From Patescibacteria group bacterium (GTDB taxonomy: Bacteria > Patescibacteriota > Minisyncoccia > 2-02-FULL-40-12 > GWA2-44-9): a DNA stretch of 64,000 nt. The notes under the pieces are model-generated. The model ran no database searches and was not told where the DNA came from. It saw only the letters and a program-made list of their open reading frames with translations. The stretch covers positions 5,462 through 69,461 of the forward strand of contig JBBTQV010000016.1 in NCBI GenBank assembly GCA_038065515.1, in the 5' to 3' direction. Within the stretch, counting starts at the first letter, position 1. Each line of letters begins with the position of its first letter. Positions 4,608-38,561 of this stretch are shown here, one piece after another. Both the position numbers and the translations under genes were made by a program.

Positions 4608-4698
4608 CCGCTTCAGTATGCGCAGTATTTCCGCCGCCCGCCAGCTATTGTCTTTATGCGTCGTATGTGTTATACTTTGTATAGGAGGTTAGTTAGTA

Positions 4699-5003
4699 TG
4701 CCAAACTTAGACAATCTGCGCGACCACAGGCTATACTGCAATCCGAGCTGCAAAGGTCCTGTTCCCGCCACCGAAGCAAAGCGAAGCGGTGTCGCCGACC
4801 GTGAGAGAACCCGCAAGATCGTTCACGGAGCTGTCGAAGTGTTTCTGTCAGCAGTGCTCGACACTCCGGGTGACAAGCCCCTGGATGTGGAGCGACTCTG
4901 GGCCGAGGCCAAGCCCGTCGTCATCGAAGCCGCCCGCGAATATCGCGCCCGCGCCCGACAGCGATTCGCCGAAGACGCGGTGGCCACCGAGTCTCTTGGT
5001 TAG
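4699..5003 (+). CDS. hypothetical protein
   Basis: ATG 4699 preceded by strong SD TAGGAGG. The ORF track's longer 4542 start lacks an RBS. -10-like TATACT upstream. Confidence 0.5.
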
Positions 5004-5051
5004 CCCGCACTCTGTCACCCCGAAGTCCCGCCACGGCGGGGCTTCTCTTTT

Positions 5052-5342
5052 TTACATGTTCTGACCGCGGTCCATATTCTCAACTGGTTCGGGTGTCACA
5101 TCCTTCGGCTCCTGGTCACGCGCCACAGTGTCTTGTGCAGGGTCAATGGGCATAAGAACAACACCGACAATATACGCGAGAACCATCGGCCACCAACCGG
5201 AAAAGAACGCCACCGCGGCCATCAGTAACCGTATAAATATGACATCGACCTGCAGGTAATGCGCCAGCCCCGACCCGACCCCGAATACCAGGCCGTCTTT
5301 CGGAGAGCGGTACAATTTTTTGTTTTTCAGATGCTCAAACAT
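5052..5342 (-). CDS. PspC-domain membrane protein
   Basis: LYRSPKDGLVFGVGSGLAHYLQVD matches the PspC N-terminal domain, followed by a TM helix. Confidence 0.65.
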   Translation of the reverse strand: MFEHLKNKKLYRSPKDGLVFGVGSGLAHYLQVDVIFIRLLMAAVAFFSGWWPMVLAYIVGVVLMPIDPAQDTVARDQEPKDVTPEPVENMDRGQNM

Positions 5343-5352
5343 AATGGCGTTG

Positions 5353-5568
5353 TTATGATTCCGGCTCTTCCAAATCTCGTTTGAGCTCCTCGAATTCGTT
5401 TTCCACCTCTTTCAGACGCCCGCGGAGGTCTTTGATGAGTCCAGCGCCTTCGCGAACCCTTTTCAGGCCCTCCTCGACCTGCACCTCGGACTGCTCGTCA
5501 AACCATTCGATAATTTTCTCAAGTTTGCCCAGCGACTGCGAAATCGTTTCTTTATCTTCTTTTTTCAT
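5353..5568 (-). CDS. xseB: exodeoxyribonuclease VII small subunit
   Basis: 71-aa helical protein with the XseB pattern (LEKIIEWFDEQSEVQVEEGLKRVREG...LKEVENE), immediately downstream of xseA. Confidence 0.6.
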   Translation of the reverse strand: MKKEDKETISQSLGKLEKIIEWFDEQSEVQVEEGLKRVREGAGLIKDLRGRLKEVENEFEELKRDLEEPES

Positions 5569-5724
5569 AGATCTACTGTTTAATAATTTTCATAACGAAA
5601 TGCTAAGATTCTGAGCGAGGCGAAGTAAGAATTCTGAAGCATATCGGTTGATATGTCGAAGAATTATTATGAAGCCGTAGCCAGAATATGAGCATTGGAG
5701 TTGAAAGGTTATTGAACAGTAGGT

Positions 5725-6906
5725 CTATTGTTCAGATTGTAATTCTTTTACTTCGCTTGCGAAAGCCCCCTTTGCCAGACGGGTGTTAACGACCTGTCCG
5801 TGCCGCAACTGACTTGCCGAGCGGATGACCGCGCCTGCATCATCGGTCACGATGCTGTACCCGAGCCGGAGTTGTCGCTCCGGGCTCACCGCGACCAGCT
5901 GACGCTCTGCGGCATCAATTGTTTGCTGTATCTGTCCGATGACCTGTCCCACCCGTTGCATTGCAAGTGCGATGCGCTGTTGCAACCGCTGGCCCGCTCC
6001 CAAAATACGCTGCACAAATCCGTCCAACCGGTGCCACGCACCGTCGAGTCTGCCTTGTTCGGTATCGATAGCCCGCTCCATCGCATACAATAGCGTGTCC
6101 GCCTGACCCGAAATGTTACGAAGCCGATCCCACGATGCGTTGATGAGTATCGCGGTTGCTGTTGGCGTGCTGGCACTCGCATCGGCCGCCATCTGCGCCA
6201 GCGGCACATCGCGGTCATGACCGATGGAAATAATGGTAGGGACACGGGAAGCAAACACCGCCCGCACCACCAGCTCGTTGTTGAATGCCTGCAAATCTTC
6301 CATCGAGCCTCCCCCGCGAATAACCACCAGCACATCGATAGATTGCTTCCTGCGATTGAACGACCCGATTGCGGAGACAACTTGGTTCACTGCGGCCGCG
6401 CCTTCAACGCGCACATCACGGTGGTACACTTTCATGCCCAGCGCTGCCAGATTGCGCCGAAAATCGTCGATGACCGCACCGGTCTTACTGGTAATCAATC
6501 CGACCCGCGCAATGAATTCAGACAGCGCCCGTTTTCGTGCAAACAGCCCTTCTTCTTCAAGCTTTTTCTTCAGTGCTTCGTATGCCTTTTTCAGCGAGCC
6601 CTCCCCCACGGGTTCGAGTGTTTCCACCTTGAATGAGAATCTTCCTTTTGGTTTATAAATGGACGGAATACCACCGACTTTTACCTGCATACCGTCTTCG
6701 ATAACAATGCCCAGCCCCCGGTATGCATACGGACTCATATAGCAATCCATCACCCCGCCCGCTTCCGCATCTTTGAGCGAAAAATACATGCCGGTCGGAT
6801 GCGGCCGTGCACCGATGACCTCGCCTTGTACAAAAAAATCATGCGCTCCGAGAATCTCATTGATGAAATCCAAAAACTCGCCCACCGAGAATACGGCTGG
6901 CGGCAT
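5725..6906 (-). CDS. xseA: exodeoxyribonuclease VII large subunit
   Basis: Start refined to MPPAVFSVGEF (aligns with the E. coli XseA N-terminus). OB-fold then catalytic region GLITSKTGAVIDD...RGGGS. Confidence 0.85.
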   Translation of the reverse strand: MPPAVFSVGEFLDFINEILGAHDFFVQGEVIGARPHPTGMYFSLKDAEAGGVMDCYMSPYAYRGLGIVIEDGMQVKVGGIPSIYKPKGRFSFKVETLEPVGEGSLKKAYEALKKKLEEEGLFARKRALSEFIARVGLITSKTGAVIDDFRRNLAALGMKVYHRDVRVEGAAAVNQVVSAIGSFNRRKQSIDVLVVIRGGGSMEDLQAFNNELVVRAVFASRVPTIISIGHDRDVPLAQMAADASASTPTATAILINASWDRLRNISGQADTLLYAMERAIDTEQGRLDGAWHRLDGFVQRILGAGQRLQQRIALAMQRVGQVIGQIQQTIDAAERQLVAVSPERQLRLGYSIVTDDAGAVIRSASQLRHGQVVNTRLAKGAFASEVKELQSEQ

Positions 6907-22217: not shown

Positions 22218-23360
22218 TCAGTATACCACGGAGCGCAGTTGCTGCAGCGTCTGACGGGCAGTATCAGGCCATGAAAATCGCGTAACGCGTTCGTATCCTT
22301 TCGCAATCAGCCGCGACCGTAGCCCTGCGTCAAGCAACACCGCTTCTAATGCGGCGGTAATACCTTCAATACGGTACGGATCCACCAGAAGTCCTGCGTC
22401 TCCGATAACCTCCACAACCGATGATGTCGCGCCAGCCACAACCGGTGTCCCGCACGCCATAGCCTCCAACGGCGGGAATCCGAACCCTTCTAAAAGCGAT
22501 GGGTACGCCAGAACGGATGCCGCAGACAGTATCAGCGGCCGCTCCGCGCGGTCAATCCGGTCGAGAAACTTCACCATACCGGGAGTGCGTGTTGCACGGA
22601 TCGACCGCATCAACTCCTGCTCCATCCAACCGGACTGACCGGCGATAACCAGTTGCATATTCTGCATACCCTCTCTGCGCCGAAGCAGGTTCCACGCCGC
22701 CACGAGAGCGGGAAGATTTTTGCGCGGCTCGCGTGTTCCCAATGCCAGTATAAACGGCCCTTCGATGTCGTGCGATTCGCACCACTGCCGTATGACTTGC
22801 TCCGACGGACGGCGCAGCAGCGGATCCGTACCCGAATGCACGACGGCGATGCGTTCCGGTGCGATGCCGTACACACCGGTGAGGTCGTCGGCCGTCGACC
22901 GGGAAACCGCAATAATGCGGTCTGACGCCCGCACCTGCGCGCGCGGACGCATCTGAATGTCGTGCCAGCGGCGGCGGTGCCACGACAACAACTGCGGCAT
23001 GCGCTCGTACGAGAGGTCATGCCATGTCATCACTCGCCGACATGATGGTGAGAGTGCCCCCAGTAAGAAATGCGGAAAGAAAAACACATCGACGCCTCCG
23101 ATGATGGTATCCAGAAACGGACGCCCGGTGAGCCGCGTCCGCAACCACAGCGCGCGGTTGGACATGCCGGTTTCATACACTTTCACATTGGGCATCTCCA
23201 TCCATGACCGTCGCGTCAACGGCGCACGGCCGCTATAAAACAGTTTCCACTGCACAGCGAACTCCAACGGAATCATGTGCGCCAACAACTGTTCGGTATA
23301 TTCTTCAATACCGCTCGCGCGTCCGGTTCCCAACACCCTGATATCAACTCCAATCCTCAT
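22218..23360 (-). CDS. glycosyltransferase family 4 (GT-B, group 1)
   Basis: EGFGFPPLEAMACGTPVV (E-x7-E motif region). Confidence 0.8.
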   Translation of the reverse strand: MRIGVDIRVLGTGRASGIEEYTEQLLAHMIPLEFAVQWKLFYSGRAPLTRRSWMEMPNVKVYETGMSNRALWLRTRLTGRPFLDTIIGGVDVFFFPHFLLGALSPSCRRVMTWHDLSYERMPQLLSWHRRRWHDIQMRPRAQVRASDRIIAVSRSTADDLTGVYGIAPERIAVVHSGTDPLLRRPSEQVIRQWCESHDIEGPFILALGTREPRKNLPALVAAWNLLRRREGMQNMQLVIAGQSGWMEQELMRSIRATRTPGMVKFLDRIDRAERPLILSAASVLAYPSLLEGFGFPPLEAMACGTPVVAGATSSVVEVIGDAGLLVDPYRIEGITAALEAVLLDAGLRSRLIAKGYERVTRFSWPDTARQTLQQLRSVVY

Positions 23361-23983
23361 CTGTCAATGGGCACCATTGACAGATCGTCGGTGGCGCATT
23401 TATCTGATCGATACTCTTCAATAAATTTCGAGTATCCCGCTCGATCTGGGAACTGGCTAAGAATAATGTCTTTTTCACACCATTCGCCATTCCCCTCCCC
23501 AAAGTATTCCCCACAACTACTCCATTGATACGCTGCTGAATTTTTCACTAGACCATCCTTGCAGGGGTTATTATGTATATATGCCGAGAGATTTTTGAGA
23601 TATTGATTATCTCCGATATTTCTTTGCTTAAATTGGTCTTGGAATATGTGGCCGACTCTTTTGTGTTTCAGATTGAAATATTTTGAATAGCTTGTGCAAA
23701 TTCTCATCATGAGAACGCTCGTAGGAATTTCTTTGTTCTGTCCGATTAATAAGTGAAAATGATTCGGCATGAGACAATATGCGATAAGTGAAAATGCCCC
23801 CACCGGGAGCGAATGCATTCTCCGTGGTAATTTATTACGATCGGGATAAATATTCTGGACAAGTCGGAGTAAAAAGAATTGATAATCAGCGGAATCAAGA
23901 AAAATATCCTGCCTTGCGTTCCCCCGATTATAAATATGAAAATACCCACCCGGCACAGAATCTTTGTAGTCGCGATCATTCAT
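23357..23983 (-). CDS. IS200-like / REP-associated Y1 (HUH) tyrosine transposase
   Basis: YHIYNRGNARQDIF, HUH motif LMPNHFHLLI, catalytic Tyr region YIHNNPCKDGLV...YQWSS. Start likely MNDRDYK. AT-rich relative to flanks. Confidence 0.75.
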   Translation of the reverse strand: MNDRDYKDSVPGGYFHIYNRGNARQDIFLDSADYQFFLLRLVQNIYPDRNKLPRRMHSLPVGAFSLIAYCLMPNHFHLLIGQNKEIPTSVLMMRICTSYSKYFNLKHKRVGHIFQDQFKQRNIGDNQYLKNLSAYIHNNPCKDGLVKNSAAYQWSSCGEYFGEGNGEWCEKDIILSQFPDRAGYSKFIEEYRSDKCATDDLSMVPIDR

Positions 23984-24075
23984 ATGCCCGATACTAGAGT
24001 GTTTTCTGACGCTGTCAATGGTGCCCATTGCCATCTAGGGTAGCTCGTGGCTCATAACAGCGCTAATAGGCCATG

Positions 24076-25200: not shown

Positions 25201-25578
25201 CTAAATAGTTTTCTTCTTTTTGAGCGTCAAGATACTTGGACCCAATATGTTAGCAATTTCGGTAATTTCAGCGAGCAGGAGAGTTGCTTTTGATTCCGTA
25301 GCTTGCTTGGTGTCGCGTAACAATGCAAGCCAAAGTTTCGATTCATTCGCTGACTTCAGGGAATGGGTGAAGAAATTGATAAAATCCCGACGGGAGCTAG
25401 CCGCCGAAGCTTCGGTATAGTTGGCAATAATACTCGTTCCGCTTCTTAACAACTGCTTCCCCATAACATCGCCAGAAGTACCTTTTGGCAGATGCTCAAC
25501 AAAGCTCACGAGATTGAGAGTCCATTGATAGAGGCGTTTTTTGAACTCGTATTTGAATTTTGATGTGTCATTTTGCAT
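25201..25578 (-). CDS. four-helix-bundle protein (23S rRNA intervening-sequence protein / Avd family)
   Basis: 125 aa. LY.W......V..LPK and C-terminal ..LAEITEIANIL pattern typical of this family. AT-rich. Same family as DGR Avd, but no RT adjacent. Confidence 0.65.
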   Translation of the reverse strand: MQNDTSKFKYEFKKRLYQWTLNLVSFVEHLPKGTSGDVMGKQLLRSGTSIIANYTEASAASSRRDFINFFTHSLKSANESKLWLALLRDTKQATESKATLLLAEITEIANILGPSILTLKKKKTI

Positions 25579-26988: not shown

Positions 26989-27044
26989 GAGATGGGGTCA
27001 GGATTCATCTGGCTGGGTATACCACAAATACCGACCACTCTCAA

Positions 27045-27082
27045 TGCAAAACCCTCACTTAATGATTAAGTGAGGGTTTTGC
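27045..27082 (-). terminator. rho-independent terminator downstream of rnpB
   Basis: 15-bp perfect inverted repeat aaaccctcacttaat/attaagtgagggttt with flanking T/A runs. Confidence 0.6.
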
Positions 27083-27091
27083 GCCTGCCTG

Positions 27092-27553
27092 CCGGCAGGG
27101 TCGGTGCGTGCGATAAGCCGAGTTCTGTCCCCCATCATGTCGCCATGGTGGGGGGACCGTCATTTATCTGCGATGTGTGTTGCCACACACCTGTAGCCCA
27201 CCTTCGCTCTTGCGAGCTTCGGCGGACAATAGCGTACGAACTTTTCGCTGTGCCCTCCATAGCTTTAGCGACGGAGGGAATCAACGCTGTACTTGCACTC
27301 CGGTAAGGATTTAGCCGTTTCACCCCCGGTCTTGTTACCCGCGACCGGGATTGAGCGTAGCCTCCGATAGAATCGATGGCCCTGGGTCAGCTCTCCTGCA
27401 CCTTTCGGCGCAGATCGTCTCTGCTCGCACCTCTTGGCTTGCGCCAGACGGGAATTACCCGCTACCATTCTCAGTGCCATGTGGCACCGTAGTGCTCGGA
27501 CTTTCCTCACTCAGCCTTGCGGCCAGGCGCGACAGTCTGCACGCACCGACTCC
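27092..27553 (-). ncRNA. rnpB: RNase P RNA (bacterial type A)
   Basis: Minus strand carries GAGGAAAGTCCGAGC (P4 5' strand) and ACAGAACTCGGCTTATCG (P4 3' strand). P1 pairs GTCGGTGCGTGC with GCACGCACCGAC. GGGGGTGAAACGG J11/12-like. -10 TATACT at 27557-27562. Ends approximate (+/-10 nt). Confidence 0.8.
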
Positions 27554-27647
27554 TGTAGTATAGCACAGTTTTTATAGAAAAGCCAGCACTTGCCGATCTG
27601 GTGCCTACTACAATAATACTAGACTAGCAATTACAAGGGGCTCGTAT

Positions 27648-27676
27648 TTGACATTCCTTAGTTTGTATGCTATGAT
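27648..27676 (+). promoter_or_regulatory. sigma70-type promoter (TTGACA-17-TATGAT)
   Basis: TTGACA at 27648-27653, 17-nt spacer, TATGAT at 27671-27676. GGAGG RBS at 27705 and ATG at 27715. Confidence 0.55.
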
Positions 27677-27714
27677 GAACATAGTTCCATTCTGGAACAT
27701 TTTGGAGGTACGCG

Positions 27715-28239
27715 ATGGGCATTTTCAGTGTGTTCAGCGGTATCAGCCGCGACAACCTGGCCGAGAAGCTCGGGTTGCTGGGTCAAGACCTAGATCGTCG
27801 CATCGACGCCAAGGCCGAAGAGTTTGAAGCCGAGAACGGTCCGAATCCTCTGGCAATCCTAGCCGCCATTAGCCAGGTCGAGTCGGAATTACTGGAGGAG
27901 CACTACACCGGCACGAACATCAAGCAGCTTCACCAGAAGTGGATAGTCATCATGGAGACCATGTACTTCAAGAGGGTCGCGGTGATCAAGGACGATCCGT
28001 CCGTCTTCTTGCACTTCTCCGTGAAGGATGGCATCAGGAAGTTCATCAAAGATCGGTACCGCGAACTAAGCGCAACGGTGGAGTACTCGATGCTCCCCAT
28101 GCTGGCGCTCGTCGATCGGGCCATGCTGGAATGTATGGCCAGCGGAGCACCAAAGGGACAAGACTTTGGCGCTTGGGTCCGTGAGGTCTGCCACTCGGGA
28201 TACAAAGCAAAGGAGGAAGTCCTCAATCATCGTCTCTGA
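27715..28239 (+). CDS. hypothetical protein
   Basis: 174 aa with good RBS and own promoter and terminator. No family recognised. Confidence 0.5.
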   Translation: MGIFSVFSGISRDNLAEKLGLLGQDLDRRIDAKAEEFEAENGPNPLAILAAISQVESELLEEHYTGTNIKQLHQKWIVIMETMYFKRVAVIKDDPSVFLHFSVKDGIRKFIKDRYRELSATVEYSMLPMLALVDRAMLECMASGAPKGQDFGAWVREVCHSGYKAKEEVLNHRL

Positions 28240-28250
28240 ATCTGTCGCGC

Positions 28251-28281
28251 AACGCCCCGGGGTTTCCGGGGCGTTCTTATT
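28251..28281. terminator. rho-independent terminator (bidirectional)
   Basis: aacgccccgg-ggttt-ccggggcgtt stem-loop. Confidence 0.55.
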
Positions 28282-28284
28282 CAT

Positions 28285-28656
28285 CTACTTCTGTGCGACT
28301 TGTCCCGCTAATTTCTTGCCCTCTTCTTCAGGGTCAGCCTCGTCTTCCTCAATCAGAAAAGCTTCTGCTTTATCGTCCTCAATAAGCTCATCCTCTACGG
28401 CATTCATTTCATCCACAATACCGGTTGCCATCGTGACAGTAGCTGCGGCAATATCTTTCTCGGCTTCGGCGATGCGGGCATCCAGTCCGAAACTTTCGAG
28501 CTTCTGCGAGTCCTCGTCGATGCCGGCTGATAGGCCACCGAGTGCGGCCTCATAAAGCGCCAGCTTCTCGCGCAGTTCGTCAGCAAGCTGTTCCAACCCC
28601 CGAATTGCTTTTGCGTCCCGCTTTGTCATGACTTGTTGTGAGTGTATAGCGGTCAT
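28285..28656 (-). CDS. hypothetical acidic coiled-coil protein
   Basis: 123 aa. Start overlaps the stop of the upstream 821-aa gene. Very acidic C-terminus. Confidence 0.4.
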   Translation of the reverse strand: MTAIHSQQVMTKRDAKAIRGLEQLADELREKLALYEAALGGLSAGIDEDSQKLESFGLDARIAEAEKDIAAATVTMATGIVDEMNAVEDELIEDDKAEAFLIEEDEADPEEEGKKLAGQVAQK

Positions 28657-31121
28657 TATTTATTTACTTTAGCTGCAAAGAGGTCTCTGCTTGCCTTAAA
28701 CTTCTTCATCGTGTTCGGTGATAGCCGGAGCTGTTGGTATTTCTGCGTCAGGTCCAATAGCTGCTGCCGTGTCGGAATGCCATCCTGATGCAACCGGGCC
28801 TGCTCGGATGCGACGAACGCAACAAACTCGTCCGGTTTTTCAATCACAAGCTCCACATTGTACGCATTCCATCGCTTCACAAAGTCAGCCGGTTGCCATT
28901 CTTCTGCCATGCGTTGCTCCCTATTGGGCCCCTCGGTCACCGTGGATTGCTCCGGACCCGCTGTCGTTGCAATGCCCGCCTGCGGCGGTGCTTCAACGGT
29001 TGTGCGTTTCGGCCGTGTCAGACCTGCCGCCTCGGGGAATTTCATGCGCTGCGCGATGGTCTTCTGCTTCAGCTCCCATGTATCTATCCCCGCCTGTGCG
29101 CGCGCCAGCGGAGCCCGTGCTTTCGCTACACTCTTATCGGCTTGCGCCTCAAGCCGTTCAAGACTTTTGACCTCCTGCTCAATTTCTTTGATAGCCCGCC
29201 GGGCACGGGAAGACATGAACATCGAACTTCGTTTTCCCGCATCTGCCTTTGCAACTGCGAGCTTCTTAAGCGCATCCTGACGCAACGCCGAAAGATTCTT
29301 CCGAACATCCATTGCTGCGGCTTCTTTGCTTTTCAACACCGTAGCCAACTCCCGGTACGGTTCCAGCTCGCGTTCGTAGCGTTCGGATACCTGCCGTTGT
29401 AAATCATTATGTTTCTCCTGCCAGCGATGTCGGACCGATTCATATTTGTCGACACGGGATTCGCATGTATTCGCATGTTTTTGCCATGCCCGGACCCGAT
29501 TCGCATAAAACAATTTCATAGGCCATCCGGCGTCCTGGGCTGTTGCTTCCCAGTTCGATAACTTGTTGTTCGCCCGATTCAATAGTCCTTGTGTGCGGAC
29601 CTGTTGCATCATGCGCACCTCTGCCATCTGCCGGTGGAATACCGATTCCAAACGCGGGGCAAGTGTATCAAGCCATGGCTTTGTCCCGCTCTTTTCGACC
29701 GCCCAGTCCAGTGCTCCGCGCACATAATCAAACGGGCTGATGTATTCGTGAAGAGGTTTTTGTTCCGGTGCTTCTTTTTCTTTTTGTGCGGGCCGCTCGA
29801 CTGGTTCAGGTGCGGGTGGTTGGGGTTCCTTCAGTTCACTTATTTTCGCTTCTGCCGCTTCGCGCGCCACTTGTATCTCGGGAGACAGCGGTACATTTAC
29901 CCTCTCGGAACCGACTTCTTTTTTCCCCGGTACTTCCGATGGGCCCCGTTCTTGCCGTAAAATATTCAGTGATTCATCGGGTGATGGTGCTACGACTTCC
30001 GGTGAGACCGACAGGGAAGCAGCTTCTTGCTCAAGAAGATTCCTGACCTTTTCCCGCAAGCCGCCGGCCGGAGTTATGTATTGAAGCATTTCCTGAACTG
30101 CCAAAAGATTTCCTTTTTCTTTGCGGAATGTGTCGCGGATGTCTGTGATGTTTCCGATCAGTTCGTCGGCTTTGTAAGGCTTACCGGTAGTGCCGATGAC
30201 TTCCCCTGCCGTGATGAGTAATTCGCGCAACTGATCAAATGACTGCGCTACTGAAAAGTCTGGGCCCTTCTCAATCTTTCCCCTAGGCACTTCAACCAGT
30301 TCGGGTTTTGGTTCCTCTATCGTTTCCATCCGCGGGGGGCGGCCCTCCGCATTGACCTCCAATACACGGGCGCTTACCTTGCCCTCGGTAACGACATCAC
30401 CAACCCGCGAACCAGTCGGATGCTCTGGTTCATTTTTCTCGCCAAATTGGAACCACTTATTTTGTGCTTCTACGGCAATGGCCTGGGCTGATTTTGCCTC
30501 GGGACTGTCCATGCCAAGTCTCCTTTCAATTTCGTACAGCTTTTGAAAAGCTTTCTTGCGTATATCATTCAGACGATCCTTTTCTGGTTCTTCCCTAGCC
30601 TCCTTCTCCTCAAGAGCATCACTGTATTGTTGTGTTAACTTTGTGAGCCGTCGAACTTCTTGCGGTTTCTTTTCGGCTTCGGCGCGTTTCAAGGCCGCCT
30701 CCGCGCTTTCATATTCTTCTTCAATTGAACCGAGCGTTTTCTTTTCACCCGAAAATTCGGCTGCCTTTGCTTTCAGGCCCCTCTCATACGCTATGCGGGC
30801 TTCTTCTATCTCGTTCTTTGCCGTTTCTTTTGCGGCTACATCCGGTGATGGCGTTGCATCAACACGATGCTTGGCGTCTTCGGCTTTCGATTCGACGCTC
30901 CGGTCAATCTGTTCGGGAGTGGACGGCTGTTCTCCGAATTCCTTCCATGATGCTTCTTCCCGTATACGCCATTGCTCTTCACTTTGTCGCGCCTCCTCCA
31001 TATCTTCTTTGTGAGACGACTCTTCCATTGCCGCAAGCCGCACTACCGGACGCGACATGCGGTACGGCGGATGCGGGATTTCAAGTTCTTCGAGAATATT
31101 GTTGGTCATGTTATTATGCAC
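28656..31121 (-). CDS. large (821 aa) charged coiled-coil protein of unknown function
   Basis: Long Glu/Lys/Arg/Ala-rich predicted alpha-helical sequence. No TM, no enzymatic motif. Start overlaps the upstream 90-aa gene. Confidence 0.55.
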   Translation of the reverse strand: MHNNMTNNILEELEIPHPPYRMSRPVVRLAAMEESSHKEDMEEARQSEEQWRIREEASWKEFGEQPSTPEQIDRSVESKAEDAKHRVDATPSPDVAAKETAKNEIEEARIAYERGLKAKAAEFSGEKKTLGSIEEEYESAEAALKRAEAEKKPQEVRRLTKLTQQYSDALEEKEAREEPEKDRLNDIRKKAFQKLYEIERRLGMDSPEAKSAQAIAVEAQNKWFQFGEKNEPEHPTGSRVGDVVTEGKVSARVLEVNAEGRPPRMETIEEPKPELVEVPRGKIEKGPDFSVAQSFDQLRELLITAGEVIGTTGKPYKADELIGNITDIRDTFRKEKGNLLAVQEMLQYITPAGGLREKVRNLLEQEAASLSVSPEVVAPSPDESLNILRQERGPSEVPGKKEVGSERVNVPLSPEIQVAREAAEAKISELKEPQPPAPEPVERPAQKEKEAPEQKPLHEYISPFDYVRGALDWAVEKSGTKPWLDTLAPRLESVFHRQMAEVRMMQQVRTQGLLNRANNKLSNWEATAQDAGWPMKLFYANRVRAWQKHANTCESRVDKYESVRHRWQEKHNDLQRQVSERYERELEPYRELATVLKSKEAAAMDVRKNLSALRQDALKKLAVAKADAGKRSSMFMSSRARRAIKEIEQEVKSLERLEAQADKSVAKARAPLARAQAGIDTWELKQKTIAQRMKFPEAAGLTRPKRTTVEAPPQAGIATTAGPEQSTVTEGPNREQRMAEEWQPADFVKRWNAYNVELVIEKPDEFVAFVASEQARLHQDGIPTRQQLLDLTQKYQQLRLSPNTMKKFKASRDLFAAKVNK

Positions 31122-31386
31122 CGATGCTCGCTTTGATGCGTTCTATTTCTTCCTGTGCACCTGCGGCCTGTTGTGACTTTGCCTGTGCAAGATAATCGAC
31201 AACAATAGCGTCCATTTTGTCGATGGCCAGCTTCGCAAGGCGCTTGCGCTCTTCCAGTGATACCTCCATCGCTGCGCTTCCGGTAACCGCCGGTTTCTGC
31301 GTTAGTTCGTCAAGTTTCGCCAAAATATCGGCGCCCAATGCTTGGGCTTGCGCGCCCACATCCTGAACTGCCGGTTCGTCTGGCAT
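31114..31386 (-). CDS. hypothetical small helical protein
   Basis: 90 aa, Ala/Gln-rich. Translationally coupled to the 821-aa gene. Confidence 0.4.
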   Translation of the reverse strand: MPDEPAVQDVGAQAQALGADILAKLDELTQKPAVTGSAAMEVSLEERKRLAKLAIDKMDAIVVDYLAQAKSQQAAGAQEEIERIKASIGA

Positions 31387-31439
31387 ATGGATACAGTATA
31401 CCCCGCTCTTGTGGCGGGGTCGCGTACCAACTGTGGATA

Positions 31440-32114
31440 CTATTTTAGCCGGAATGCCCCGGCAAGGGTCGCCAGTAAGCCTTTCTTCGCGGATTGAGCC
31501 GGTCCTTTTTGCATCTGCACAATCGCCACATGCGCTACGGCGGGAGCATGCTCCGTGGCATGCGACACCGCCGCCAGCACAGCGGAGCCGACCCGCGCCA
31601 GCCGTTCGTCTTCGACGCGCTGCACGAGCGATGAAAGCGTCGCGATTCGCGTTCGCATATCGCGGCGTTGGTCTATGGTTAGCATGTGTTGGACGGAGGC
31701 ATACGAAACTTTTACGCGATGATGGAGGTCACGGACAGCCGAAAGGTCAATCTGCTGCATTGTGGCCGGATATTCGGTGCGCAGCTTATTGATCAATCCC
31801 ATCAGCGCACGCCGCTCCTTTGATTGGGCCGGTGCCTCTGCCTGTTCATCCAGTTCCTGAAGCTTCTCCTGTGCGGCATCCAAACCATCATGAAGCATCT
31901 GAAGCTTTGCCTTCGTCAATTTGTTCTTCAGCGCAAACTCGAATGCCGATTCAAGAGACACGACATCCGCCAGAATATGCCGGACCTGTTCGTCATAAAG
32001 CTCCAACGGAATCAGAATGCGCGGCTCTTCAGGCGTTTTGACCGTTTGCCATTCAGCTTTCAGCGCTCGTATCTTCCGCTCGATTTCCGATTCGATATGT
32101 TCCGGGCTCGTCAT
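31440..32114 (-). CDS. hypothetical coiled-coil protein
   Basis: 224 aa. First gene of the apparent operon downstream of rnhA. Confidence 0.45.
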   Translation of the reverse strand: MTSPEHIESEIERKIRALKAEWQTVKTPEEPRILIPLELYDEQVRHILADVVSLESAFEFALKNKLTKAKLQMLHDGLDAAQEKLQELDEQAEAPAQSKERRALMGLINKLRTEYPATMQQIDLSAVRDLHHRVKVSYASVQHMLTIDQRRDMRTRIATLSSLVQRVEDERLARVGSAVLAAVSHATEHAPAVAHVAIVQMQKGPAQSAKKGLLATLAGAFRLK

Positions 32115-32129
32115 GATGCTTTCATTATA

Positions 32130-32576
32130 CTACAGCTCAAGTTTCGGGGAATCTTGTCGGTCAAGCGCTTCGTTGACCATGGCATCGGCGTCCTTGTTGT
32201 GCTCGCGGCGGACATGCGTGAACGAAATTTTGGCAAAATCCTGCCGCGCGTTGTACAAATCAACGAATAATTTCTTGAGTCCGGCATCGCGGACTTTGTA
32301 TTCCCCGTTCACCTGACGCACAAGCAATTCGCTGTCTGCCATCACGCGCACATGCGCCGCGCGGGCGCGTTCGGCTCCGATGAGCGTTTTCAGTTTGTTC
32401 AGCGCAAGAATCGCCGCGGAGTACTCGGCAACATTGTTGGTCTGCACCCCTAGGTAGTGTCCTTGCTCGGTCCGGCGGATATCCGGACCTTCAATAACAT
32501 ACCCCGCCGCAGCAGGACCGGGATTTCCACGGGACCCGCCGTCGGTGTATACGGTGTACACAGATATGCTACTCAT
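32130..32576 (-). CDS. rnhA: ribonuclease HI
   Basis: YTDGGSRGNPGPAAAGYV, AEYSAAILAL, HVRREHNKDADAMVNEA (DEDD catalytic residues). Start MSSISVYT chosen; ORF-track start 32636 would overlap the upstream gene. Confidence 0.85.
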   Translation of the reverse strand: MSSISVYTVYTDGGSRGNPGPAAAGYVIEGPDIRRTEQGHYLGVQTNNVAEYSAAILALNKLKTLIGAERARAAHVRVMADSELLVRQVNGEYKVRDAGLKKLFVDLYNARQDFAKISFTHVRREHNKDADAMVNEALDRQDSPKLEL

Positions 32577-33165
32577 ATTTCCGGTCCATGAGCTTCTTGA
32601 AGATTTCGTAGGTCGCACGCGCATCCACAAGCGCATCGTGCCACTGCTGGTTCTTGAGATGAAAATATCTTACTACTTCACGCATACGAAATCCGTCCAT
32701 ATGTGAACGGTACAAGTCGCTGAAAATCATACTCTGCACATCCAGTACCTGCCAATGATACGAGGGCTCGATGCCCACCTGATGAAATGATTTCTTGAGC
32801 TGAAAGAAATCACCGACAACATTATACCCGATGAGTACCGCGCCGCTGACGAATGCATCGAACCGCATCAGCGCCTCTTTCAGCGGTATGGCGTCTTTCC
32901 ATTTGCGCGCAGAATAACCAATGAGCTCCAGTGCTTTGCGGTCACCGTTCTCCATGTGTCGCGGTTTTACCCGCGTCTGCCATTCGCCGATAATTTCAAA
33001 TTTTGGCTGGTTCACCAACACAACACCGATTTGCAGTATCTCGTTGATAGCAGACAGTCCGGAAAATTCCAAGTCGACGAACGCTAGCGGCCGCTCCTTG
33101 ATACGCGTATCCGATACATACCGCAACGGCATCTTTTCTTTTGGTTTTTTTACTTTATGCTCCAT
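32569..33165 (-). CDS. dnaQ: DEDDh 3'-5' exonuclease (DnaQ/epsilon-like)
   Basis: Exo I FVDLEFSGL, Exo II YNVVGDFFQL, Exo III HDALVDARATYEIF. Confidence 0.7.
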   Translation of the reverse strand: MEHKVKKPKEKMPLRYVSDTRIKERPLAFVDLEFSGLSAINEILQIGVVLVNQPKFEIIGEWQTRVKPRHMENGDRKALELIGYSARKWKDAIPLKEALMRFDAFVSGAVLIGYNVVGDFFQLKKSFHQVGIEPSYHWQVLDVQSMIFSDLYRSHMDGFRMREVVRYFHLKNQQWHDALVDARATYEIFKKLMDRKYE

Positions 33166-33168
33166 GTT

Positions 33169-34164
33169 TCATGCTTCATCGTAATACCCAAGTACTTTGA
33201 GCCCTGGTAGCTGTGTGCCCGCAAGAAATGCGAGCATCGCTCCCCCGCCGGTGGAAACAAATGTAAACTTCTCCAGCAGTCCGAGAACATCAACCGCAGA
33301 AATGGTATCACCGCCCCCGATAATCGACAATGCGCCGCTTGCGGCGATGGCACGGGCGATCGCTTCGGTTCCGGCCATGAATCGCGCATCCTCAAAACGC
33401 CCCATGGGCCCGTTCCAAATAATGAGCTTCGCTCCTTCCGCGAGCACCGTAAATGCCCGCGTCGTCTCGGGCCCGATGTCCCGTGCGTGGCCATCGTCCA
33501 TGATAAAATCCGTCGGCAAGTGCAGTCGTGAGTCTTGCGTATTGATATTTGTCATCCCTGCGAGAATCTCATTGGCAGCCACACCGCCGACGGCAACATG
33601 CTCTGCTCGTACGATAAGATGTTCGATGACCGGTATCTTCGTGCTCGCCTTGGCACCGCCGATGTAGACTACTTTCCCCTGCGCGGGTGCATTAATGGCT
33701 TTCACAAGCTGTCGGGTTTCTTCCTGTATCAGCAAGCCGGCATACGCGGGCAAGAGTTTTGCCGCCGCAACAACCGATGCATGCTCGCGATGGCACACCG
33801 CGAACGCACTATTTACATAGAGGTCGCATCCCGCGACCAGCTCGCGTGCAAACGATTCGTCGTTGGTTTCTTCTCCGGGATGCTGGCGCGTGTTCTCCAA
33901 CAGCACTACCTCATCCCCGAATGTAACGCCAAGCAATTGCTCCAATTGCGGTTTGAGCGGTTCAAAACTTGGCACCGCGGAGATGTGTGCCGCCAACACT
34001 ACATGCGCGCCGCGCGAAAGCAGATAGTCCAGCGTTGGCTTCTGCCGCACGATGCGATAGCGTTCGGCAATCGTGCCATCAGTATTCACAGGTACATCAA
34101 AATCCGCGCGCAGAAATACTTTCTTGCCGCGTATATTCCCTGCTTGGTCGAGTGTACGCATCAT
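33169..34164 (-). CDS. pgk: phosphoglycerate kinase (compact, 331 aa)
   Basis: VFLRADFDVP, LENTRQHPGEE, IIGGGDT, STGGGA. ATG overlaps the RT1 stop (ATGA). Confidence 0.9.
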   Translation of the reverse strand: MMRTLDQAGNIRGKKVFLRADFDVPVNTDGTIAERYRIVRQKPTLDYLLSRGAHVVLAAHISAVPSFEPLKPQLEQLLGVTFGDEVVLLENTRQHPGEETNDESFARELVAGCDLYVNSAFAVCHREHASVVAAAKLLPAYAGLLIQEETRQLVKAINAPAQGKVVYIGGAKASTKIPVIEHLIVRAEHVAVGGVAANEILAGMTNINTQDSRLHLPTDFIMDDGHARDIGPETTRAFTVLAEGAKLIIWNGPMGRFEDARFMAGTEAIARAIAASGALSIIGGGDTISAVDVLGLLEKFTFVSTGGGAMLAFLAGTQLPGLKVLGYYDEA

Positions 34165-35150
34165 ATGCTCTCTCGAATATTATAGGTATTTCCGTGTCCC
34201 AACAACCCCCGATATGACTGCCTTGTTGCTTCTACCGGACATTCCCGCAACCGTCTGAACATCCGGCGCTTTGTATTCATCCGCAGTACTCGGTGATCCG
34301 GGAAGTGCGCCCAGCCCAGGAAGTCGATGCCGGAAGCTAGAGTGCGGAGAGAAACCTTGTGTGGATGCAAATCGAGATGAAGTTTTTCCTGCAGAAAGTC
34401 GCCGATACGAGACAGGAGTTCCTGCAAATAAGACTTGTCGCCGTGCAGAATTGCAAAGTCGTCCGCGTAGCGGATGTAGTGTTTCACTTTGAGCGCGTGT
34501 TTCACCCACTGATCAAACTCGTTCATATAGATATTCACCATGAGCTGTGATGTCAGGTTGCCGAGAGGGAGGCCCGGGAAGAAGCTGGAAATAATGCGGG
34601 ACAGAAGCCAGAGGGTATCGGAGTCAGGAATGTGTTTAGCTATGATGTCGTTCAGAATGTCGTGGTCTATACTGGCAAAAAACTTGCGGATGTCGCACTG
34701 TAGCACCCAGCAGGTGCGGGTATGATTCTGGGAGACCCGGTACCCAAAGGCGCGAAACCGGTTTAGTGCACGATGCGTGCCTTTGCCCAGCTGACAGGAG
34801 AAGGAGTCGGCAATGAATTTCCTGCTGAAATAGTGACACAGCACCCGATGCACGGCGTGGTGCAGAAGGCGGTCCCGCACACTTGCTTTGTGGATACTCC
34901 GTGGCTTTGGGTCAGAAATGTTAAATGCTTCGTATGGTGAGTGGTGATATGTTTTTGCAATCAGATCGTTATGGAGCATAACAACATTATCCATTAGGTT
35001 GTGCTCAAAATCCTGCACATCTCTACGGGCCCGCTTGCCGCCCAAAAACTCCTTCCATGCTCCAAGGAGATTTTCCAAAGAAATGATATGCTGAAAGCCC
35101 TCATCAAGCTGAATATGACTCATTCGCCCAATAATACCCCCCCGGCTCAT
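34161..35150 (-). CDS. diversity-generating retroelement reverse transcriptase (DGR-1 RT)
   Basis: RT motifs: LPLGNLTSQLMVNIYMNEFD (DGR-specific SQ in motif 4) and YIRYADDFAIL (motif 5/C). A TR/VR pair is adjacent. True start may be the internal Met at 35123 (MSHIQLDEGF). Confidence 0.85.
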   Translation of the reverse strand: MSRGGIIGRMSHIQLDEGFQHIISLENLLGAWKEFLGGKRARRDVQDFEHNLMDNVVMLHNDLIAKTYHHSPYEAFNISDPKPRSIHKASVRDRLLHHAVHRVLCHYFSRKFIADSFSCQLGKGTHRALNRFRAFGYRVSQNHTRTCWVLQCDIRKFFASIDHDILNDIIAKHIPDSDTLWLLSRIISSFFPGLPLGNLTSQLMVNIYMNEFDQWVKHALKVKHYIRYADDFAILHGDKSYLQELLSRIGDFLQEKLHLDLHPHKVSLRTLASGIDFLGWAHFPDHRVLRMNTKRRMFRRLRECPVEATRQSYRGLLGHGNTYNIRESI

Positions 35151-35508
35151 TCCACTACTCCAAAGCGCAAAAAGCGCTTACGGACTTTGGTATAGCTATC
35201 TTCAGACACTCCCGAAAACCCATCGGCACTCCCTGGGCGTGAGGGTTGATGCGTTATTTATTGAAATCATTGAGACACTCGCAGTCGCGAGTTTTCTGGT
35301 GCGTGAAGAAAAAATCCCTTATGTGCGTATTGCTATCAGAAAAACGGATACCCTCAAAATACTACTGATGGTGCTCTGGGAAACAAAATCACTCGACGAT
35401 AAAAAGTACATCGCACTATCGCTCAAGATAGACGAGATTGGCAGGATGCTTGGCGGATGGAGCGGTCAACTTCAAAAACAAAACTCCCCCACGAAGGGAG
35501 AGAAATGA
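35115..35508 (+). CDS. avd: Avd-like four-helix-bundle protein (DGR-1 accessory variability determinant), N-terminal segment out of frame at a C7 tract
   Basis: ORF-track GTG 35239..35508. The same frame upstream (from 35119) encodes ...AYGLWYSYLQTLPKTHRHSLG, matching the Avd/IVS N-terminal helix, but has no start. ATG 35115 is in the -1-adjacent frame and is joined by deleting one C from the C7 run at 35137-35143. Opposite strand to the RT. Confidence 0.6.
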
Positions 35509-35515
35509 AGAGAGT

Positions 35516-35647
35516 TGCGCGGGGCCAAGAACACCCACCGATTGTCAGGGTACCAGGCATTGTCGGGCTTACCGTAGTTGCTGTTCAACCACCGGTCACT
35601 GCTGTCGTGTTCGACATTGAACACCTTCAGGTAGTCGTCCGAGTCCG
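35516..35647 (-). repeat. DGR-1 template repeat (TR1)
   Basis: 132 bp, near-identical to the target1 3' end. Differs at 14 positions, every one an adenine in TR (coding/minus strand). Lies inside the spurious ORF 35472..35768. Confidence 0.85.
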
Positions 35648-35883
35648 TGTATAAAGGATGCCGTCTATGCCACTGTCCCTCGAATGCTCTTGGGACTGTA
35701 TCGTATTCGGCATCATTAATGCCATAACATCCTTTACCAAGTATCTTCATTTTTTGAAGTTTCTGCATATGTCCTCCATCTCAAACCGTAATCGGAGATG
35801 TTCTCAACATACGGATACTGGATTCGGCAGCGGGAAACCGTAATCTCCCACATATTCGCCTAATACCAAAGTGAGTATACCAG

Positions 35884-35925
35884 AATAAAGAAAGTGGCCG
35901 TACACGCTTTCGCATGCACGGCCAC
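35884..35925 (-). terminator. rho-independent terminator after DGR-1 target gene
   Basis: gtggccgt...acggccac 8-bp stem followed (minus strand) by TTTCTTTATT. Confidence 0.5.
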
Positions 35926-35988
35926 CAGACGGGGCCGAAGGACTAAGGTTCAGAGGTCAGACAGACCAAAGAAACTAAGTGCCGAGGA

Positions 35989-36603
35989 CTAAGTCGTGCG
36001 CGGGGCCAAGAACACCCACCGACCGGCAGGGTACCAGGCATGGCCGGGCTCACCGTAGTAGCTGTACAACCACCGGCCACTGCCGACGTGTTCGACACTG
36101 AACACCTTCAGGTAGCCGCCCGAGTCCGCGAGGGGCTCCATGGCAATCAGGAGCCATTCTCCGGGGGGTTGATCAGGGTACTGCAGACGAAGCTGCGGAC
36201 CGACCTCGGCGGGACAGAGCCGGAGTCCCAACTCCAGAGCACGGGCGTAGATGGTATCGCGGCGAGCGGCCTGGGTGAAGCCCAGATCAGTGCCGGAGAC
36301 GATAACGAGATCGAGCTTGGTCTTCTTGGGGCTCATGCTGTTCTTGGCCAGGATCCGACCGGCGTAGTCGCTGATGCGGAAGCCCGCGGATACCAGCGAT
36401 GCGCGGAGCCCGTCCACGGTCTTGAAGGTACCAAGTGTGATGGTCTTCCAGACCGGGAACTGGGGCCAGGGGTCCTCCTTGCGGAGGAACCGCTTGAAGG
36501 CGGCGAACCACTGGGGACCTTCGGGTCCGGCGAGTTTCTCAAAAAATGCCTTGAACGGTCCGGCCGTCTCGGCCAGAGCGCTTGCGTCGAGCATGATGGA
36601 CAT
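35989..36603 (-). CDS. DGR-1 target protein (204 aa, no signal peptide) with C-terminal variable region
   Basis: C-terminus ...YLKVFSVEHVGSGRWLYSYYGEPGHAWYPAGRWVFLAPR is the VR counterpart of TR1 (N/D/K in TR become Y/G/H/E/A/V here). Confidence 0.75.
   Translation of the reverse strand: MSIMLDASALAETAGPFKAFFEKLAGPEGPQWFAAFKRFLRKEDPWPQFPVWKTITLGTFKTVDGLRASLVSAGFRISDYAGRILAKNSMSPKKTKLDLVIVSGTDLGFTQAARRDTIYARALELGLRLCPAEVGPQLRLQYPDQPPGEWLLIAMEPLADSGGYLKVFSVEHVGSGRWLYSYYGEPGHAWYPAGRWVFLAPRTT
35997..36128 (-). repeat. DGR-1 variable repeat (VR1) at 3' end of target gene
   Basis: Aligned base-by-base to TR1. All 14 mismatches correspond to TR adenines. GC-rich IMH-like end (GGCCCCGCGCA) shared with TR. 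Confidence 0.85.
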
Positions 36604-36672: not shown

Positions 36673-37530
36673 TTAATTACACTCCTGTCTTCCTGATTTG
36701 TCAATCCCCTGTATCTCATCTTCTGCAATCTCGCTTGCAATGGTGAGAATCCGCGCAAAATCTTCAGCGCGGACGGACGCCCCGCCGACGAGAACGCCGG
36801 AAATTTCGGAGCGTTGCAAAAACTCATGCGCATTGGCAGGCGTCACCGAACCGCCATAGAGAAAGGCGATGTGCGACACATCGAAATGATCGGCTAACGC
36901 TTCGCGGATGAGACTCATCGACTGCACGGCGCTGGCGGGCGTGTCGGGTTTGGCATCAGGGTTGGTGCTAATGGCCCACACCGGCTCGTACGCTATGATG
37001 CACTGCCCTACCTGTCCGGGCGTCAATCCGCGGAATGTCGCGGCGACCTGCGCTTTGAGCGCATCCTGCCAATCGCCCTCGCGAGCTTGCCCGCCGAAGC
37101 CTTGGCGTAGGCGGGTGCGCTCACCGACGCACACAATAGGCACCAATCCGTTGCGGAGCGCCGCCCGCAGTTTTTCGTTGACCATTTCGTCATCTTCATT
37201 GAGCTTGTAGCGCCGGTCACTGTGCCCAACAATCACATACCGCACGCCGAGTTTTGCCAGTTGCGGACCGCTCACCTCGCCCGTCTGTGCGACATCATCA
37301 CGCGCCGCAATATCCTGCGCACCCAACCGCGCTACATCGGCAAGCACGCCTTCGCCCAACATTGCGGCGACATCTTCCAGAAAAACAAACGGCGGACAGA
37401 ACACAATATCCAGCTGTTGCGCCCCTGCGCCCAGTCCGCGGACATGTTCGTCAATTTTCGCGACAATATCCTGCGCCTCGGCAAGAGTCTTCGGATTCAT
37501 CTTCCAATTCGCGATGATTAACTTTTTCAT
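36673..37530 (-). CDS. tpiA: triosephosphate isomerase
   Basis: IANWKMN, GHSDRR, IAYEPVWAIST, GGSV. ATG overlaps the RT2 stop (ATGA). Confidence 0.9.
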   Translation of the reverse strand: MKKLIIANWKMNPKTLAEAQDIVAKIDEHVRGLGAGAQQLDIVFCPPFVFLEDVAAMLGEGVLADVARLGAQDIAARDDVAQTGEVSGPQLAKLGVRYVIVGHSDRRYKLNEDDEMVNEKLRAALRNGLVPIVCVGERTRLRQGFGGQAREGDWQDALKAQVAATFRGLTPGQVGQCIIAYEPVWAISTNPDAKPDTPASAVQSMSLIREALADHFDVSHIAFLYGGSVTPANAHEFLQRSEISGVLVGGASVRAEDFARILTIASEIAEDEIQGIDKSGRQECN

Positions 37531-38561
37531 GTGGAATAGAGCCACGCAACATTGCGCAATTCCTGTTCTATCTTATACGCATTCCCGTGGCCGAGCAATC
37601 CGAGATAGGACTGGAGCGTAGTCTGGACTGGCCTCTTTACGATGTTACGGAACGCTCGTCGTTTCGTTACTGTTCGCAGAACTTTGTGGGTTGGAAAATA
37701 GGACCATCCAAGAAAGTCGACACCGGATGCCAATGTCTTGAGCGCAATCTTCCGAGGATGCAAGTGCAACAACAAATAGCATTGCAGGAAGTCGCTTACG
37801 CATGGAACGAGCGAGACCAGAAAAACTCTGTTGGGATGCAGTATGACAAAATCATCTGCGTAGCGGATATAGTGAGGCAAACCCATCCGGTTCTTCATGA
37901 AGCAATCCAGCTCATTCATATAGATATTGGCCAGTAGTTGCGATGTCAGATTACCCAACGGCAAACCCCTACCAGGGCTTGCATGGAAACTGCTGATGAC
38001 TTCTTGAAGAAGCCTCATAACCAAAGCATCTGAAATCGTCCGCGCAAGAATGGCCGATAGTCTGACATGGTCGATGCTGGCAAAGAATTTTCGGATGTCA
38101 CACTTCAACACCCAGCAGGTCCGAGTATTGTTTTCGCTTGTCTTGTTGATGAAAGAACGGAATCGCGCTCCGGCTGCATGAATCCCCTTGTCTACCCGAC
38201 AAGAAAATGAATCGGAAATGAATAGATGGTCAAAGATTGGATATAACACTCGATGGATTGCGTGATGGAGCAAACGGTCGCGAACTGTTGCCTTATGGAT
38301 ATGGCGCGGCTTGGGATCGCAAATATGAAAGCTGTGATACGGACCATGCCGATACGCTCCATTGGCAAGCTCGTCGTGCAGGTATAGGATGTTGTCCATC
38401 AGTTCCCGCTCGAATTCTTGGACATCAACCTTGTCCCGCTTGCCAGACACGAACTCTTGCCATGCGAGCAGAAGATTTTCCAGAGAAATTATTTCCTCAA
38501 ACATACAAAAACCTATATGACCCCCCCCCCAACAAGACTTACCGATACTGCAAAAGGCCAC
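37527..38561 (-). CDS. diversity-generating retroelement reverse transcriptase (DGR-2 RT), paralogue of RT1
   Basis: LPLGNLTSQLLANIYMNELD and YIRYADDFVIL. Roughly 60% identical to RT1 by eye. True start probably MFEEIISLE at 38504. Confidence 0.85.
   Translation of the reverse strand: MAFCSIGKSCWGGGHIGFCMFEEIISLENLLLAWQEFVSGKRDKVDVQEFERELMDNILYLHDELANGAYRHGPYHSFHICDPKPRHIHKATVRDRLLHHAIHRVLYPIFDHLFISDSFSCRVDKGIHAAGARFRSFINKTSENNTRTCWVLKCDIRKFFASIDHVRLSAILARTISDALVMRLLQEVISSFHASPGRGLPLGNLTSQLLANIYMNELDCFMKNRMGLPHYIRYADDFVILHPNRVFLVSLVPCVSDFLQCYLLLHLHPRKIALKTLASGVDFLGWSYFPTHKVLRTVTKRRAFRNIVKRPVQTTLQSYLGLLGHGNAYKIEQELRNVAWLYST

Follow-up and report, generated by a model that had tools for sequence, protein, structure and literature searches.

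A four-gene cluster of environmental Saccharibacteria encoding a candidate coiled-coil tether and its putative acidic partner

Introduction

Some polar or division scaffolds, such as Caulobacter PopZ, join a short peptide for docking to a helical domain for assembly by way of a linker that is acidic and disordered. The scaffold proteins DivIVA/GpsB and EzrA consist of long coiled coils, have no enzymatic domains, and use short motifs to recruit their partners. Docking by a short peptide is also found in FtsN and PilN, whose N-terminal cytoplasmic peptides dock onto the actin-like proteins FtsA and PilM (PMC7613929). Here we describe a cluster of four genes (A, B, C, and D) that belongs to no known family and whose function, as far as it can be judged, most resembles that of lineage-specific coiled-coil scaffold systems. 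The cluster lies in a 64,000-nucleotide stretch of DNA (the window; positions 5,462 to 69,461 of contig JBBTQV010000016.1, assembly GCA_038065515.1) from a Patescibacteria group bacterium. We assign a probability of roughly 40% to the reading that the four genes encode a non-enzymatic cytoplasmic tether or scaffold complex of mutually unrelated orphan helical proteins, in which D partners the C-terminal module of C.

Genomes of the Patescibacteria, or candidate phyla radiation (CPR), abound in genes without annotation, and structural or evolutionary descriptions exist for very few clade-specific modules. The module described here is small and well defined, with a core pair (C and D) and accessory genes, and it can be tested through its candidate docking peptide, through a possible partner of complementary charge, and through a domain swap that arose naturally. 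Should it organize polarity, division, or host contact, it would represent a lineage-specific solution to cell organization in ultrasmall epibionts; otherwise, it would be one of many conserved orphan operons, which are common in CPR genomes. The corrected gene models, promoter and hairpin signals, and family alignments reported below are usable for annotation.

Protein C shares with PopZ-type scaffolds a presumed cytoplasmic location, the lack of enzymatic activity signatures, a restriction to one lineage, and an order of parts in which a short N-terminal peptide is followed by an acidic, Pro/Glu-rich, variable linker and a helical C-terminal domain. It differs from PopZ in having no sequence or Pfam relation to it, in being about 4–5 times larger, in ending with a globule preceded by a three-helix coil that is basic and about 210 residues long, and in coming with a dedicated acidic partner and two more orphan proteins. 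The likeness to DivIVA/GpsB and EzrA lies in the long coiled coil and the possible recruitment of partners through a short motif, whereas C has no N-terminal membrane anchor or lipid-binding domain, and a test for amphipathic termini, run on A, E, and g174, was negative. Its N-terminal peptide, like those of FtsN and PilN, is short, highly conserved, and set apart from the rest of the protein, and one variant (from locus L010) has a possible transmembrane segment downstream; however, the peptides are unrelated by search, the spacer of C is hundreds of residues long, and the FtsN–FtsA and PilN–PilM precedent serves as an analogy and not as evidence.

Gene models and architecture of protein C

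The cluster consists of four tightly packed minus-strand genes: A (31440–32114, 224 amino acids), B (31114–31386, 90 amino acids), C (817 amino acids), and D (28285–28656, 123 amino acids). An earlier note on this DNA, which was made from the letters and a list of open reading frames (ORFs), had placed four ORFs here, and all four are present on the minus strand at its coordinates. The note had begun C at an ATG at 31121, following the listed ORF (28656–31121, 821 amino acids); the codon at 31121 is GTG, and C almost certainly starts at the ATG at 31109, 4 nucleotides (nt) past the TAA of B, since the NCBI annotation has 817 amino acids and the homologues share a conserved N-terminus (MTNN/MINT/MANN) at this point. 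The base that C and D were said to share, 28656, does belong to both the stop of C and the start of D (TAATG), and judged by this overlap D is translationally coupled to C.

C is made of three parts with distinct composition and conservation. The first is a near-invariant N-terminal peptide (residues 1–26; 31032–31109, minus strand), a putative docking motif with the consensus [LF][DE][DE]Lx[IV]PxPPYRMxRPxxx[LF]A, which is kept among members that are only about 25–35% identical elsewhere. Each locus has one copy, the window contains no second one, and no analogue was found among PDB sequences; at locus L013, a similar motif (PPYRARLAAMA) is found in the upstream protein instead.

The second part, residues 27–444 (29778–31031, minus strand), is an acidic spacer with a net charge of −23 that is rich in E, K, A, and P and appears partly helical and partly disordered. 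Its sequence is hypervariable, with indels and low identity across the family, and its length ranges from about 250 to 600 amino acids; one short island (residues 233–262) is conserved. An AlphaFold prediction of C from three sequences (mean predicted local distance difference test score, pLDDT, of 57.8) placed helices at residues 25–226 and had low confidence at 228–444.

The third part is a C-terminal module (residues 445–817; 28659–29777, minus strand) that is more than 90% identical to close relatives and basic (net charge +15, isoelectric point [pI] 9.9). It comprises an antiparallel three-helix coiled coil (approximately 445–690), a linker (691–729) that carries the motif MKFPE..GL..P.R and a Pro-rich stretch, and a helical globule (730–817). 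The earlier note had suggested structure prediction for these proteins, and AlphaFold, run on this module with a 16-sequence alignment, predicts a coiled coil with a mean pLDDT of 80.3: antiparallel helices of 50, 95, and 55 residues, followed by a disordered linker and then by about 85 residues that form a helical globule. In this model, the coil would be about 140 Angstrom long. The third helix has a strong heptad periodicity (z=5.5, period 3.5), the coil has a net charge of +12 to +26 in all genomes, and its conserved residues include R486, R493, Y535, R538, W542, R560, H567, and R577. No tandem repeats of note were found in C.

The description of all four proteins as Glu/Lys/Ala-rich helical or coiled-coil proteins therefore needs qualification. 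The composition is right for C, while A is Ala/Leu-rich, B Ala-rich, and D Ala/Glu/Asp-rich, and a coiled coil is predicted for the C-terminal module of C only; in A, B, and D, helix-forming residues are plentiful and the amphipathic-helix periodicity is modest (p ~0.02–0.03, period ~3.7). That the proteins lack transmembrane segments and catalytic motifs was borne out by a Kyte-Doolittle scan, in which the highest 19-residue means in A–D were 0.62–1.13, and by a motif search, in which no conserved Walker, metal-binding, or catalytic motif was found in the cluster proteins. We take the cytoplasm as the location by default, because there is no hydrophobic segment.

The predicted architecture of C, with its candidate docking peptide, acidic spacer, long antiparallel coil, and coupled acidic partner, fits a scaffold or tether. 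This was one of several roles that the earlier note had offered; for the others, in the cytoskeleton, chromosome organization, or host attachment, we found no positive support. One could imagine a Saccharibacteria-specific cytoskeletal or tethering apparatus, in which C would be anchored by its basic coil and D while the PPYR peptide would capture some conserved machinery, such as an actin-like ATPase from the divisome or from the type IV pilus, organizing the cell pole or the host-contact site, but we consider this unlikely. A further idea was that the N-terminal peptide of C might mimic the C-terminal peptide of FtsZ; no FtsZ gene is encoded within the window. A literature search on coiled-coil systems of Patescibacteria and Saccharibacteria returned nothing relevant.

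Protein D and natural variants of the core pair

D (28285–28656) is strongly acidic, with a net charge of −18 and a pI of 4.2, and the pI of its orthologues stays between 4.05 and 4.30 throughout. The basic coil of C and the acidic D are complementary in charge in 9/9 genomes, and the negative charge of D covaries with the positive charge of the coil (Pearson r=0.79, p=0.011; Spearman rho 0.83; n=9, uncorrected for phylogeny).

Locus L010 offers a natural domain swap. The protein in the position of C (4281–6683) keeps an identical N-terminal peptide and the acidic spacer, and its C-terminal half is unrelated: it has a borderline transmembrane-like segment at residues 641–659 (19-residue Kyte-Doolittle mean 1.58, compared with at most 1.04 in all other C members), a Gly-rich stretch, and an unrelated terminal domain, and the protein has no Pfam match. 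The D of this locus is strongly diverged (E 4e-13, compared with 1e-29 to 1e-43 elsewhere), and A and B stay well conserved. The swap shows that the peptide and spacer are a separable unit and, together with the diverged D, ties D to the C-terminal module of C. At a second locus, L012, A and B are missing and C directly follows rnhA, with a remnant of the C-terminal motif of A fused to the N-terminus of C; C and D are thus the core of the module. The N-terminal peptide is retained at loci without A and B, at loci where the fifth gene of the cluster (E, see below) is missing or another gene takes its place, and at the locus with an exchanged C-terminal module, which argues that its partner is D or something encoded elsewhere.

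We picture C as a bipolar modular tether. Through its N-terminal peptide, C would dock onto D or onto a partner whose gene lies elsewhere; the spacer would set the reach or distance between the two ends; and D may bind and neutralize, or cap, the basic C-terminal module. A and B would be accessory subunits, since one lineage has lost them.

The same features could be assembled into an effector with its immunity protein or chaperone: C would be exported and host-directed in the manner of polymorphic toxins, its N-terminus would be a trafficking signal and its basic module the active part, and D would be the immunity protein or chaperone. Saccharibacteria are epibiotic parasites (PMC10633639), and C has in common with colicins and polymorphic toxins a conserved N-terminal part, a long helical coil, and a basic C-terminus, followed by a coupled small acidic protein whose charge covaries with it, as well as one swap, at L010, in which the C-terminal half is exchanged and D diverges too. 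The cluster also evolves faster than its flanks and contains a possible recombination tract common to strains (see below), and the top fold matches of C include IpaB, colicins, and alpha-pore-forming toxins, though these matches are generic. Several findings speak against an effector. C has no signal peptide, no recognized toxin, secretion, or translocation domain, no catalytic motif, and no pore-former hydrophobic hairpin (the 19-residue Kyte-Doolittle mean peaks at 0.62 in C and does not exceed 1.04 in homologues, L010 aside). Features of type VII substrates were lacking too: A, B, and D contain no WxG, a C-terminal YxxxD/E signal is missing, and Pfam had no match. The C-terminal module has a ratio of nonsynonymous to synonymous substitution rates (dN/dS) of 0.08–0.11 and is the same in about 20 lineages, all but that of L010, and so does not look polymorphic. 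The locus is single-copy, fixed in position, and vertically inherited, without orphan cassettes, and has no PADLOC, phage, or plasmid link. We judge an effector to be rather improbable.

Distribution and synteny

The window matches contigs from Hainich groundwater and an NCBI metagenome-assembled genome labeled Patescibacteria, and all relatives of the cluster are labeled Saccharibacteria or Patescibacteria. An exhaustive phmmer search with the conserved module of C against 1.84 billion representative proteins returned 20 matches, a scan of 241 million metagenome records returned 4 loci, and in GTDB the family is present in 3 species representatives, each of which bears the title uncultured Candidatus Saccharibacteria. 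The protein clusters that we looked up were all singletons or near-singletons with no name or the name 'hypothetical protein'. No homologues were found by tblastn in 50,697 phage and 72,556 plasmid records. The module is restricted to one small clade of environmental Saccharibacteria (Patescibacteria/CPR).

Synteny was scored with one profile hidden Markov model per family across all non-redundant loci. D directly follows C in 13/13 loci that extend far enough; among the 11 that extend far enough upstream of C, A is present in 10 and B in 9. The order rnhA-A-B-C-D-(E or g174)-rnpB-sugar transferase recurs in related loci, including the most distant members, and the block always lies between rnhA and the genes for RNase P RNA and a WbaP-like sugar transferase. 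The gene set is thus conserved in relatives, where the earlier note had named its absence as an outcome that would count against its reading of the cluster. There is one copy of the locus, always at the same place in the chromosome, and no orphan cassettes were seen; with invariant flanks at all loci, it is a vertically inherited chromosomal module and not the cargo of a mobile element.

Directly upstream on the same strand, with a gap of 15 nt to the cluster, lie rnhA (32130–32576) and a DEDDh exonuclease gene (32569–33165), from which the cluster does run on as the earlier note had described. This invariant position, after rnhA and the exonuclease and before rnpB, could point to a nucleic acid-associated complex, in which the basic coil of C would bind DNA or RNA, as a nucleoid organizer or an RNA-processing scaffold, and the acidic D would be a regulator or mimic. 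The charge of the coil (+12 to +26 in all genomes), its conserved Arg, Tyr, Trp, and His residues, and the acidity of D would all suit such a role. However, no known nucleic acid-binding domain or motif was found, the cluster has promoter-like elements of its own, and L010 replaces the basic coil with a module that may span the membrane. The same block also holds pgk, tpiA, and glycosyltransferase genes, so that adjacency in these compact genomes says little. On balance, we doubt that the cluster acts on nucleic acids.

Searches for known families

No match at threshold was found in Pfam, NCBIfam, PHROGs, or PADLOC for the cluster proteins of the window or for the A, B, D, and E proteins of relatives, and the weak PADLOC matches all had E>=0.0025. 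Pfam had no match to any of 17 C homologues. PDB sequences yielded nothing significant with a single protein, with four family profiles, or with the N-terminal peptide, and by hhalign no relatedness was found among A, B, C, and D. A Foldseek search of C against PDB or BFVD gave no match with E<=0.001; its fold matches are those of a generic coiled coil, with 5–12% identity, a large root-mean-square deviation, and thousands of others equally good, and C has no hydrophobic translocator region or ATPase head and no evident hinge.

These results leave little room for the view that C belongs to a known family of coiled-coil proteins (SMC/Rad50-like, DivIVA, EzrA, PspA/ESCRT-III, phasin, or PopZ) but has diverged too far for our searches to detect, and we think this distinctly improbable. 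Clear homology to SMC, phasin, DivIVA, or another such family, which the earlier note had said would overturn its view of the cluster, did not turn up: none of the 17 C members matches Pfam, profile searches of PDB sequences were empty, and the order of domains in C fits none of these families. For SMC, MukB, and Rad50, a Walker A motif is absent from A, B, and D and is present, unconserved, in 1/23 C sequences, with no Walker B-like motif and no Pfam SMC match. A DivIVA domain was found neither in the four proteins nor in the 17 C homologues. EzrA had a sole match of 13.8 bits (cut-off 39.6) in one A orthologue, no transmembrane anchor was seen, the phasin Pfam families had no match, and no PspA_IM30/Snf7 domain with an N-terminal amphipathic membrane-binding helix was found.

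Selection and evolutionary rates

The four genes are real and under purifying selection. Compared with orthologues, dN/dS is 0.10–0.27 for A, 0.10–0.23 for B, 0.14–0.24 for C, and 0.17–0.20 for D, and these values, together with the conserved synteny, show that they are not chance ORFs; the flanking pgk, exonuclease, rnhA, and sugar-transferase genes have values of 0.02–0.14. Although homologues are confined to one clade, the composition of the region is skewed (AT skew −0.24), and long antisense ORFs occur, the idea of chance or decaying ORFs in a purine-skewed region is effectively refuted, since the annotated frames are under purifying selection, the only two changes in C between two co-occurring strains are both synonymous, and gene order, lengths, and motifs are kept across genomes with saturated synonymous sites. 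The cluster proteins diverge much faster than those of neighboring genes: identity to relatives is 47% for A, 55–63% for C, 78–88% for B, and 80% for D, compared with 85–91% for the flanks.

Identity between strains is mosaic when 27638–34437 of the window is compared with L004 and L005. Over the roughly 3.8 kb of B, C, D, and g174 there are 3 differing sites, gene A has 38 differences and a 29-amino-acid N-terminal indel, and rnhA, the exonuclease gene, and pgk are only about 89% identical. This pattern could reflect either a recent recombination tract that ends within gene A or an assembly chimera.

Expression signals

A −10-like TATAAT (32124–32129, minus strand) lies 9 nt upstream of the ATG of A and abuts the stop codon of rnhA. 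It is likely the promoter of a near-leaderless transcript, and a −10-like element is kept 6–9 nt before the first gene of the cluster in L002, L004, L008, L010, L011, and L015, and also in L012, where that gene is C. The intergenic element between A and B (31387–31439, minus strand) is conserved: a hairpin formed by CCCCGC (31419–31414) and GCGGGG (31406–31401) is followed by an invariant TATACT (31400–31395), 8 nt before the ATG of B. The sequence GGGGTATACT after the hairpin is invariant and has one exact match in the window. In a six-genome alignment, this element is more conserved than the flanking coding DNA, and the hairpin stem has compensatory changes, with 6/17 predicted pairs covarying. 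The arrangement suggests a terminator for A combined with a promoter for B-C-D.

The motif G[GT]TATA[AC]T followed by 7–9 nt and an ATG occurs 4 times in the window, with 3/4 at true gene starts. It lies 8–9 nt before the ATG of A (32124–32129), of B (31395–31404), and of a DUF4012 gene (22220–22229), all on the minus strand, and the DUF4012 gene is likewise preceded by the hairpin-then-motif arrangement. No Shine-Dalgarno sequence was found at A–D or at most of the genes checked, with GGAGG present at g174. Such signals suggest near-leaderless transcription in this organism, and the transcription units are likely A alone and B-C-D, each expressed from its own −10 element as a near-leaderless mRNA, with the hairpin separating A from the rest.

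Genes A and B and the fifth position

A (31440–32114) is a helical orphan whose N-terminal third is variable and whose C-terminal half is conserved, with the motifs VQHTLTxDQRRxMRxxIAxLSxLV, ATEHAPAxAHA, and a C-terminal AFRLK. B (31114–31386), also a helical orphan, has a conserved N-terminus (ALGADILAKLDELT) and a conserved C-terminus (EIERIKASIGA), and its deeper relatives have a central insertion of about 120 amino acids. An apparent inverted zincin motif (HxxEH) in A was rejected because its first His is unconserved. Candidate membrane-targeting amphipathic helices at the C-terminus of A and the N-termini of E and g174 were rejected for their unremarkable hydrophobic moments, and a resemblance of 'MGIFS' to PspA was set aside as unsupported for the same reason.

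The fifth position of the cluster is variable: it holds an unrelated same-strand gene, E, in five genomes and a gene of the g174 type in the window and L015, and it is empty in two loci. In the window, this accessory occupant is g174 (27715–28239, plus strand), a gene of 174 amino acids whose sole detectable homologue is a convergent gene of 180 amino acids that occupies this position in L015 (34% identity, E 2e-16); no homology between g174 and E was found. The earlier note had called g174 divergent, with its own promoter and terminator. It is in fact convergent, tail to tail, with the cluster, and divergent only from the RNase P RNA gene. A promoter-like site is present (27648–27676, 11/12 positions matched), together with the ribosome-binding site GGAGG, but its terminator would be a hairpin shared with the cluster: an 11-bp, GC-rich, strand-neutral stem at 28251–28275, between the converging D and g174, which is probably a bidirectional terminator.

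Genomic neighborhood

A class A RNase P RNA gene (27098–27548, minus strand) scores 105.5 bits against a gathering score of 100. It lies in the otherwise 'empty' stretch that separates g174 from the sugar-transferase gene, a position that is conserved in relatives, and a TATACT hexamer lies just upstream of it.

A classical diversity-generating retroelement (DGR) lies beside the cluster at 34161–36603 of the window. It consists of a reverse-transcriptase gene (34161–35150, minus strand), an Avd-like ORF (35239–35508, plus strand; 25 bits to Pfam bAvd, below the cut-off of 40), a template repeat (TR, 35516–35647), and a variable repeat (VR, 35997–36128) within the gene at 35989–36603 (minus strand), and 14/14 differences between TR and VR are at template adenines. 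We considered the cluster as a DGR target and rejected it: the TR matches only 35997–36128, in a different gene, and nothing in 27000–32200. The strain contig L004 has no cassette of reverse transcriptase, Avd, and TR between tpiA and pgk, and the DGR is therefore polymorphic between strains. A second reverse-transcriptase gene (37527–38561, minus strand; RVT_1 E 5e-20) lies upstream of tpiA and has about 64% DNA identity to that of the DGR.

On the other side of the cluster, an ORF for an IS200-like Y1 transposase (23357–24034, minus strand; E 1e-9) lies between two glycosyltransferase genes that are adjacent in L008 and L015, which suggests an insertion specific to the strain. A gene of the 23S rRNA intervening-sequence family (25201–25578, minus strand), which encodes a four-helix bundle (E 2e-17), lies between the sugar-transferase gene and a glycosyltransferase gene, and this protein family is distantly related to the Avd proteins of DGRs.

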